This document shows positions 51,938-53,753 of a DNA stretch of 64,000 nucleotides, piece after piece (position 1 is the first letter of the stretch; each line of letters begins with the position of its first letter). A program made the position numbers and the translations under genes. The notes beneath the pieces are model-generated. The model did not search any database and was not told the origin of the DNA. It saw only the letters and a program-made list of their open reading frames with translations. Location: NCBI GenBank assembly GCA_029567505.1, contig JAKPXO010000228.1, forward strand, positions 3,376-67,375, written 5' to 3'. The stretch is from Acidobacteriota bacterium. Lineage in GTDB: Bacteria; Acidobacteriota; Thermoanaerobaculia; UBA5066.

Positions 51938-52989
51938 GGCGGAGGTCCGGCGCCGAGATTAGCAGCGGCGAGAGGGCCGAACGCGAGCGCCCGGTCCGCC
52001 TTGCCGAGGGGGAGCGCCTCCACGAGGAGCGCGCCGACCGCTCCCGTCTCGAGGAGGAAGCCGTCGTGCCCGCTCTGCGAGGCGAGCTCGCGGTACTCGG
52101 CTCCCGCGGCGCGCGTCCAGCGGAGGACCTCCTCGGGCGGGTAGAGCAGGTCCCCGGGAATCCCGACGCCGACCAGGCGCCCGCGGAAAGGGCGGAGCGC
52201 GGCCTCCACGCTGCCGCGTCCGCGCCCGACGTCGTGCGAGTCGATCGCGTCGAGGAGCGTCCGGTAGGAGCGGGCCGTGAAGCGGCGGGCGAGCTTCTCC
52301 CCGTGGTGGTCGAGGTAGCCTCGGACGGGGCAGGGCCCGGCTCCGTCCGGGCGGAATCGCTGCTCCAGCTCGAGAGGCGTCCGGTAGGTCAGCATCCCGA
52401 CCATTCGGGCCAGGGCGAGGCCGGAGCGCGGCGCCGCCTCGATCGCCGTTCGGTGGACGTGGTTCCACGCCGAGCCCCACGCCGTCGGGGAGGCGGGGGC
52501 CGCGAAGACGATCGCCGCGCGGGCCGCGTCGGGGCGCGTCGCGCAGAGCTCGAGCGTCACCATCCCGCCGAGGGAGCCACCGGCGACGAGCGCGAGCCTC
52601 TGCACGCCGAGGGCGTCGAGGAGGAGAGAGGCGAGGCGCGCCTGGTCACGCGTCGTGATTGAGAGGGGCGTCCTCCCGTGCTCCGTGCCGCGGTGGAAGC
52701 GCGTGCCGTAGCAGGAGCCGAGAAGGTTCGGGGCGAGGACGGCGCAGCGGCGCGTGTCGATCGGCAGGCCCGGTCCGACGAACGGGCGCCAGCCGCCGAG
52801 GTCGGCCGGGGAGCCGGTGAGCGAGTGAAGGAGGAGGACGACGTTCGACCCTTCGGCGTCGACCTTCCCCTCGAGGCGGAACGCCTGCCGCACGTCGCGG
52901 AGCGTCTCGCCCGACTCGAGCGTGAAGTCGCCCGCCCGGTGCTCCGAGTGGCCGGCCGAGAGGGCCGCGGCGTCGGGCGGGCCGTTCAC
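51934..52989 (-). CDS. metX: Homoserine O-acetyltransferase
   Basis: Alpha/beta hydrolase, GGSLGGM nucleophile elbow, MetX-type N-terminus (FTLESGETL.DV..A....G). Start overlaps the upstream stop. Confidence 0.8.
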   Translation of the reverse strand: MNGPPDAAALSAGHSEHRAGDFTLESGETLRDVRQAFRLEGKVDAEGSNVVLLLHSLTGSPADLGGWRPFVGPGLPIDTRRCAVLAPNLLGSCYGTRFHRGTEHGRTPLSITTRDQARLASLLLDALGVQRLALVAGGSLGGMVTLELCATRPDAARAAIVFAAPASPTAWGSAWNHVHRTAIEAAPRSGLALARMVGMLTYRTPLELEQRFRPDGAGPCPVRGYLDHHGEKLARRFTARSYRTLLDAIDSHDVGRGRGSVEAALRPFRGRLVGVGIPGDLLYPPEEVLRWTRAAGAEYRELASQSGHDGFLLETGAVGALLVEALPLGKADRALAFGPLAAANLGAGPPP

Positions 52990-53753
52990 CGCGCGCCCCC
53001 GACGAAGGTGCCCGAGCGCTCGTCGCTCGGCGCGGCGTCGTATCCGAGGACGCGGAGCGGCACGCCGTGTTCGGCCGCGAGCCGCGCCGCGTCGGCGGCG
53101 ACGACTTGCGCGCCCGAGCGTGCGAGGTCGAGGAGCTCGTCGTGCGAGAGGCGCGGGAGCGGGCGCGCGTCGGCGTGGCGGCGCGGGTCGCGGTCGTAGA
53201 CCGCGTCGACGTCCGTGACGATGTGGCAGGGCGCCGGGCCGAGCGCCGCCGCGATGGCGACGGCGCTCGTGTCCGAGCCGCCGCGTCCGAGCGTCGCCAC
53301 CTCGCGGTCGGAGCGCTCCCCCTGGAACCCGCTGACGACGGGGACGACGCCGCGGGCAAGGAGGGCGCGGAGGCGCCGGGCGTCGACGCGCGCGACGCGG
53401 GCCGCGCCGAAGGCGCCGTCGGCTCTTACGCCCGCCTCGCCGCCGCGAAGGCTACGCGCCGGGACACCGAGCGTGTGAAGCGCCGCGGCGAGGAGGGCGG
53501 CGGAGAGGTCCTCGCCGGTCGCGAGGGCGCGGTCGACCTCCCGCGCCGCCGAGGCCGAACGTCCGGCCTCGAGGACGCCGAGGGTCTCGAGGATCTGGTC
53601 GGTCGTGTGGCCCATCGCGCTGACGACCGCGACGACGCGCCGGCCGGAGGCGACGAGGGCCGCGACGCGGCGCGCCGCACGGCGGATCCGGGCGGGCGTC
53701 CCGAGCGACGTCCCGCCGAACTTCACGACGAGGGTCTCGACGCGGGCCCTCAT
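52986..53753 (-). CDS. Aspartokinase catalytic domain only, with no ACT regulatory domains
   Basis: Start at ATG 53753 (ATGA overlap with the metY stop). [26 protein letters not shown]......[32 protein letters not shown] = LysC-type catalytic core. The protein ends at about residue 255. Confidence 0.75.

Follow-up and report, generated by a model that had tools for sequence, protein, structure and literature searches.

An aspartokinase lacking ACT domains between metY and metX in Acidobacteriota, with a candidate methionine leader-peptide attenuator upstream

How is the methionine branch supplied when the aspartokinase (AK) encoded among the methionine genes lacks the domains through which such enzymes are inhibited? 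AK is the textbook allosteric entry point of a branched pathway, and relieving its feedback inhibition is routine when strains are engineered to make lysine, threonine, methionine, or ectoine. The question is raised by a locus in a 64,000-nucleotide (64-kb) stretch of Acidobacteriota DNA (class Thermoanaerobaculia; contig JAKPXO010000228.1 of assembly GCA_029567505.1), hereafter called the window. An open reading frame (ORF) at positions 52986..53753 on the minus strand, lying between metY and metX, encodes a 255-aa protein that consists of a catalytic amino-acid-kinase domain alone; the two C-terminal ACT domains, a trait of the LysC class, are not present. We consider it probable that this protein is a methionine-dedicated AK that has no allosteric control and is regulated by attenuation, acting as a functional analogue of Escherichia coli MetL.

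Is the protein an aspartokinase? The first-pass annotation, made from the sequence, had matched it motif by motif to the LysC-type AK catalytic domain and had placed its end before the two ACT domains. These assignments held: all five motifs quoted there are present, GTFVGG among them, and profile, PDB sequence, and fold searches all ranked aspartokinases first. A Pfam search detected AA_kinase only (residues 7 to 236, E = 4e-51) and no ACT family. The top 23 NCBIfam matches were aspartate-kinase models, aligned over positions ~3 to 231 of ~407, and the subfamily-domain model TIGR00657 (asp_kinases) was passed (224 bits; cut-off, 208.7). All equivalog cut-offs for full-length aspartate kinases were missed because those profiles align to only the first ~231 of their ~407 positions. 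UMP kinase, glutamate-5-kinase, and N-acetylglutamate kinase were rejected as identities, their models scoring 39 bits or less (proB, 39; pyrH, 35) against cut-offs of at least 158. A paired or short archaeal-type AK was rejected as well (TIGR02078 AspKin_pair, 91.6 versus 242.4 bits; NF006234 PRK08373, 112 versus 237 bits).

Structural comparisons gave the same assignment. The nearest sequences in the PDB were the aspartokinases of Corynebacterium glutamicum, Pseudomonas aeruginosa, and Synechocystis, all matched over their residues 4 to 231 (C. glutamicum 3aaw, E = 1e-48). An AlphaFold2 model built with 61 family sequences had a mean pLDDT of 93.7 and a pTM of 0.92. Its best 32 Foldseek matches in the PDB were all aspartokinases, headed by 5yei_A (query-normalised TM-score of 0.88 and rmsd of 2.1 Å over 250 columns); UMP and acetylglutamate kinases were about twelve orders of magnitude weaker (E ~1e-14, versus 1e-26 for aspartokinase). 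Alignment to E. coli aspartokinase III (AKIII; strain MG1655) equated K11, E81, R157, D161, and T180-D181 with K8, E119, R198, D202, and T221-D222 of AKIII. In the mutagenesis and structure literature on AKIII, K8 and D202 are catalytic and E119 and R198 contact aspartate. K11, E81, R157, and D161 are invariant in the 61 family members, and conservation is at least 90% at T180 and D181. The chain ends on a GT-x-V strand, and Foldseek aligned ~250 of the 255 residues with catalytic domains of AKs, so that the protein seems to be cut at the domain boundary. The gene product is thus predicted to be an aspartokinase catalytic domain that would convert ATP and L-aspartate to 4-phospho-L-aspartate.

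Could the regulatory region be present in another frame or elsewhere nearby? When the C-terminal regions of ten canonical AKs were compared with the window by tblastn, matches to frameshifted or other-frame ACT sequence stayed at chance level (best E = 0.24), and a frameshift pseudogene of a normal lysC was rejected on this basis. Because metX is full length and starts at the AK stop codon, no space is left downstream for ACT domains. Twenty-eight other ORFs of the window were ordinary chromosomal genes (e.g., thrS, infC, pheST, rny, xseA, dxs, nadK, tamB, and fhs), and a Pfam scan of them detected no asd, hom, or ACT protein.

A related explanation is that the gene is a degenerate remnant, i.e., a truncated lysC pseudogene, or an enzyme of the amino-acid-kinase fold with another specificity. 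Failure of every full-length aspartate-kinase equivalog cut-off and the frequent NCBI label "hypothetical protein" would fit such an origin, and degenerate paralogues do occur: at one locus (L083), a second, motif-less copy lies beside the short AK. The homologue family is at odds with it. In a clustered collection of 5.8 billion proteins, the best 120 homologue clusters considered all comprised proteins of 183 to 320 aa with AA_kinase as the sole domain, so the length is kept across more than 100 clusters, and the chain end appears to coincide with the catalytic-domain boundary. Comparison with six orthologues gave dN/dS values of 0.20 to 0.48, i.e., below 0.5, and the amino-acid identity of the AK to its orthologues falls between the values for MetY and MetX. 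The GC content by codon position (0.83/0.59/0.94) has the pattern of a real gene in a window of 73% GC. The invariance of the catalytic and aspartate-binding residues, the highly confident structural model, and the far lower scores of other kinase families also speak against a remnant or another specificity, and the fusion of one clade member to homoserine dehydrogenase (described below) implies aspartate-pathway chemistry. We regard this explanation as very improbable; judged by these sequence measures, the AK is a real, maintained gene rather than an accident of truncation.

Where does the short form come from? The AK of the window belongs to a 57-member cluster from Thermoanaerobaculia metagenome-assembled genomes, whose members are named either "hypothetical protein" or "aspartate kinase" by NCBI; annotation of the clade is split in this way because its proteins do not reach the cut-offs of full-length models. 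Relatives come from Thermoanaerobaculia, Holophagales, and other Acidobacteriota and from Gemmatimonadota (Longimicrobiales and Gemmatimonadales). At the 50%-identity level, the short AKs form a small set that grades into the canonical ~410-aa LysC at ~48 to 50% identity. A neighbour-joining tree of catalytic domains nonetheless grouped 38 short proteins and one fusion into a 39-tip clade with a bootstrap value of 100/100, which leaves out canonical LysC, the closest full-length relative (P0125), and short AKs from Clostridia. This topology points to one loss event, in the ancestor of a distinct LysC-type AK clade, by which both ACT domains would have disappeared. A group of 410- to 450-aa AKs from Longimicrobiales (P0125 and P0343 to P0362) has a C-terminal region that is mostly no longer recognised as ACT by Pfam, and looks like an intermediate between the canonical and the ACT-less enzymes. 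Oscillospiraceae and other Clostridia (L013, L088, L024, and L053) have ACT-less AKs of their own, of 244 to 265 aa, which fall outside the clade.

The Clostridial enzymes bear on a second explanation, in which the AK supplies the catalytic half of a two-component aspartokinase and a separate ACT protein restores feedback by lysine and threonine (or by methionine or S-adenosylmethionine). In two Oscillospiraceae loci, the short AK lies directly 3' of a gene for a stand-alone ACT protein (L013, 5425-5913 and 6001-6750; L088, 1446-1964 and 2196-2945) that matches NF003361 above its cut-off (158 versus 131 bits), an arrangement that suggests a split catalytic/regulatory aspartokinase. Heteromeric α2β2 AKs with a separate ACT-only β subunit are also established (C. 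glutamicum, 3aaw). These Clostridial proteins, however, are not members of the clade, and no ACT-domain gene adjoined the AK in the ~20 distinct clade loci examined, nor was one found within the 64-kb window. Moreover, the α chain of the known α2β2 enzymes keeps an ACT region of its own with which to pair with β, whereas nothing is left to pair here, and an in-frame internal β subunit is not possible in a 255-aa protein that has no ACT region to encode one. A two-component enzyme, with a partner encoded in trans elsewhere in the genome, is, in our estimate, quite unlikely.

The proposal of a methionine-dedicated AK draws on the genes around it. The first gene of the operon is metY (53750..55096, minus strand), encoding a 448-aa O-acetylhomoserine sulfhydrylase (Pfam Cys_Met_Meta_PP, E = 3e-137; TIGR01326, 619 bits versus a cut-off of 495). 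The AK is followed by metX (51934..52989, minus strand), encoding a 351-aa homoserine O-acyltransferase; its top NCBIfam matches were MetX models and its Pfam domain was Abhydrolase_1, and although the match to TIGR01392 covers profile positions 3 to 349 of 351 with 239 bits, the MetX equivalog cut-offs were not reached. The AK start codon and the metY stop codon share ATGA at 53750-53753, and the AK stop codon and the GTG start of metX share GTGA at 52986-52989; 4-nt overlaps at these junctions were also called in homologous loci.

This placement recurs across the clade, 17 of the ~20 loci having the AK in a methionine operon. The order metY-AK-metX was found in 13 distinct loci (the window, L001, L003, L006, L008, L010, L167, L169, L171, L172, L173, L174, and L175), with hom directly 3' of metX in L169 and L172 and metK 5' of metY in L169; in L004, metY-AK is followed by the contig end. 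In two Gemmatimonadales loci (L027 and L086), the AK is followed by a gene for a succinyl-type MetX (NF006449) and then by the cystathionine gamma-synthase gene metB (TIGR02080), both above cut-off. In a further locus (L163, 276-2420), an ACT-less AK is fused directly to homoserine dehydrogenase in a 714-aa protein (P0124), followed by a succinyl-type metX. P0124 has a MetL-like architecture that arose inside the LysC-type lineage; the AK of the window is itself single-domain, without the homoserine dehydrogenase fusion. A metagenome scan for further loci returned mostly canonical LysC among the matches listed, together with three short members.

The remaining loci differ. One clade member (P0086, 64% identical; L165/L166, 1-12000) lies inside a non-ribosomal peptide synthetase (NRPS) cluster with TauD, a C-A-T-TE synthetase, MbtH, an ABC exporter, an OTCase-like gene, a PALP/ornithine-cyclodeaminase pair, and a class-III (Aminotran_3) aminotransferase that adjoins the AK. 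Should this aminotransferase be functionally equivalent to the ectoine transaminase EctB, the cluster would be a further consumer of aspartate semialdehyde, and the bare kinase appears to have been reused there to supply an aspartate-derived building block. No methionine genes were seen at L005, L083, and L084, of which L005 and L084 are contigs of less than 3 kb. At L083, the short AK (4986-5732) is followed by a tandem, degenerate paralogue of 221 aa (5754-6419), which has RFGGSS for KFGGTS and EPQGAD for GRGGSD and is without the nucleotide-binding segment; this paralogue may be a pseudoenzyme partner.

If allosteric control is gone, what would regulate the operon? The 385-nt intergenic region upstream of metY holds a promoter-like pair, a 53-codon ORF, a hairpin, and the metY ribosome-binding site. 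The promoter-like pair (55369..55399, minus strand) consists of TTGACA (55394-55399) and TACCCT (55369-55374) and lies 8 nt 5' of the leader ATG. It scored below threshold in a consensus scan; TTGACA followed 17 to 19 nt on by TACCNT recurs in L001, L003, L004, L006, and L167. The leader ORF (55199..55360, minus strand) encodes MERSAAPRSLASTLVAGGACLPACVLAMSMSMPMCGSSLLSQEESGYAAGRRM, followed by a stop codon, and contains a run of Met and Cys codons, LAMSMSMPMC, at 55256-55285. Between it and the metY ribosome-binding site lies an intrinsic terminator (55125..55163, minus strand) with a GC-rich 13-bp stem (GACCGGCCCUCUC/GAGAGGGCCGGUU) and a U-run, the sole terminator-like site on the minus strand within 51500-55700; none was found inside the metY-AK-metX operon.

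A Met/Cys-rich leader ORF with a terminator was present upstream of all 14 met-type operons with examinable upstream DNA (the window, L001, L003, L004, L006, L010, L163, L167, L169, and L171 to L175), including the AK-homoserine dehydrogenase fusion operon, whose Met-rich leader and terminator are of the same kind. Runs elsewhere read, for example, ICMSICMCMC, RICMSMAMCM, AMCMCCMCLC, MCMPMCMSMC, and MMYMRM. The stem core GGCCCUCUC..GAGAGGGCC (GGCCCUCC..GGAGGGCC in L001 and L171) was found in 13 of the 14 loci, the stem of L006 being different, and its RNA form, GGCCCUC(U)C..G(A)GAGGGCC, is nearly identical in those 13 across two phyla. Neither leader nor terminator was found at three of the four loci without metY or the homoserine dehydrogenase fusion (the NRPS locus L165, L083, and L005); at the fourth (L027, AK-metX-metB), a terminator-like hairpin was present and a Met/Cys run was not detected. 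A riboswitch 5' of metY was considered and set aside in favor of the leader peptide, with no Rfam match at the gathering threshold in the window and none at E ≤ 1 in 54900-55800.

The layout is that of a ribosome-mediated attenuator predicted to sense methionine, and probably cysteine. In several loci, base pairing is possible between the 5' arm of the terminator and a GGGAGAG-type segment located 11 to 29 nt past the Met/Cys run, and we infer an anti-termination step of this kind. Minimum-free-energy folds always keep the terminator, and folds with a stalled-ribosome mask keep it except in L001. Two further proposals of the first-pass annotation thus found support: the translational coupling of the AK to both neighbours, in the ATGA and GTGA overlaps and their conservation in homologous loci, and a putative Met attenuator over the operon, in the leader with Met and Cys codons and the strong terminator that accompany each of the met-type operons.

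This regulatory layout also bears on whether the short AK might be the cell's sole, housekeeping aspartokinase, in lineages that gave up allosteric control of the aspartate pathway. Such an explanation accords with the window, within which no second aspartokinase was found. The only source of aspartyl phosphate for threonine, lysine/diaminopimelate, and methionine would then stand behind a Met/Cys-sensing terminator, so that the other branches would starve when methionine is plentiful. Longimicrobiales, which have clade members, also hold full-length ACT-bearing AKs and the 410- to 450-aa AKs, and the clade member in a secondary-metabolite cluster fits accessory isozymes. We consider a sole housekeeping role unlikely.

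We thus favor an AK dedicated to methionine and controlled by attenuation, which would operate as follows. A shortage of charged Met-tRNA (or Cys-tRNA) would make ribosomes stall in the leader, and termination would be relieved; read-through would then allow joint production of MetY, the AK, and MetX. The kinase would add a flux of aspartyl phosphate immune to lysine and threonine, which we propose these amino acids could not block because the effector-binding domains are absent. Homoserine would stay available to MetX and MetY even with the housekeeping AK inhibited, and its supply would be uncoupled from the other branches. Control would have shifted from allostery to attenuation, as in the AK half of E. 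coli MetL. Insensitivity to end products is here predicted solely because no ACT domains are present; further parts of the proposal would be an exclusively transcriptional control and a second, regulated AK in the same cell.

Several points weigh against this reading. ACT domains also mediate dimerisation in solved aspartokinases (the AKIII and C. glutamicum structures), so that stability and activity of a bare catalytic domain are not to be assumed. Inhibition by end products could still occur, at the active site or via a partner protein. The equivalent of K257 of AKIII is Gln in the 255-aa protein and is variable across the family, and asd is not part of the operon. Short, intermediate, and ACT-bearing AKs all occur in Longimicrobiales, where co-occurrence with canonical lysC is seen at the level of the order only. 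Lastly, the energy of the anti-terminator duplex clearly beat shuffled controls in one locus only, with four loci not covered.

Other features of the window lie around this operon. The gene 3' of metX (50456-51937, minus strand) encodes a 493-aa protein with a lipoprotein-like N terminus (LAAGC), whose sole family match, to cellobiose 2-epimerase, is faint. The earliest possible start, a GTG, shares GTGA with the metX stop codon, so that co-translation with the operon is possible; the gene is not kept downstream of metX in other loci. Two genes 3' of the operon, on the same strand, lies a formate-tetrahydrofolate ligase gene (47955-49592, minus strand; Pfam FTHFS, E = 3e-231), with a PilZ-domain gene between it and the operon side; a link to one-carbon supply for methionine is possible. 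Elsewhere, the window contains a 6S RNA match (17510-17697, plus strand; 46.8 bits versus a gathering threshold of 46.4) and three tRNA genes (the positions recorded for these features also include 10074-10243 and 36958-37031, both plus strand).

What is new in this locus? The concept of a methionine-specific, non-allosteric AK is already known, and the protein is in databases under inconsistent names. In the full-text literature searched, we found no description of an ACT-less AK in a metY/metX operon or of a Met leader peptide, and no Rfam family matched the latter. A monophyletic AK clade of bare catalytic domains, the regular placement, in Acidobacteriota and Gemmatimonadota, of its members between metY and metX, and the accompanying Met/Cys leader appear to be undescribed. 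A wider claim, which we advance tentatively and hold to be possible but somewhat doubtful, is that ACT-less AKs form a separate class in which allostery was abandoned and replaced by a ribosome-sensed Met/Cys leader attenuator, an unrecognised route into methionine synthesis in these two phyla whose kinase module was reused for an NRPS pathway. If active, the compact natural 255-aa enzyme would be a ready-made feedback-free part for strain engineering and would test whether the catalytic domain folds and works without an ACT-mediated oligomer. Acidobacteriota and Gemmatimonadota are known mostly through metagenomes, and recognition of the clade would improve pathway reconstruction for them. 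The conserved Met/Cys leader could be tested as a candidate new amino-acid attenuator.

How does the system compare with those already described? In its arrangement, the leader resembles the classical attenuators of the trp, his, thr, leu, and phe operons, in which an intrinsic terminator separates a short ORF rich in regulatory codons from the first gene; here, the codons are those of Met and Cys, the anti-terminator is putative, and the hosts are Acidobacteriota and Gemmatimonadota. LysC-type AKs (TIGR00656/PRK06635; C. glutamicum 3aaw and P. aeruginosa 5yei) share the fold and the key residues, with 40 to 47% identity in the catalytic domain. They carry two C-terminal ACT domains (~160 residues) that are absent from the AK of the window, which is also without their known Lys/Thr sites and their ACT-mediated dimer or α2β2 interface. 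The logic of a pathway-dedicated AK isozyme is shared with Ask_Ect, the specialised AK of ectoine clusters, which is co-transcribed with its pathway and has relaxed feedback yet is inhibited by threonine (PMC5924519). Compared without regard to domain content, Ask_Ect differs in serving osmoprotectant synthesis and in occurring mostly in Proteobacteria.

The closest functional parallel that we propose is MetL. E. coli MetL is the classical methionine-specific AK, is not feedback-inhibited, and is repressed by the protein regulator MetJ; the concept is decades old. The MetL proteins of E. coli and Vibrio natriegens have been reported to be without ACT domains, active, and uninhibited by aspartate-family amino acids, and the monofunctional LysC2 of V. 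natriegens has been reported to be without ACT, active, and insensitive to Lys, Thr, Ile, Met, and ectoine (PMC12925634). Compared by description, LysC2 is the closest biochemical precedent; it belongs to another lineage, and no methionine operon has been described for it. MetL is a bifunctional enzyme of ~810 aa from the ThrA/MetL lineage, whereas the AK of the window is a monofunctional LysC-type domain of 255 aa, encoded between metY and metX and apparently placed under a leader-peptide attenuator. The likeness would lie in dedication to methionine and in control through expression rather than allostery, and one member of the clade, P0124, is likewise fused to homoserine dehydrogenase.

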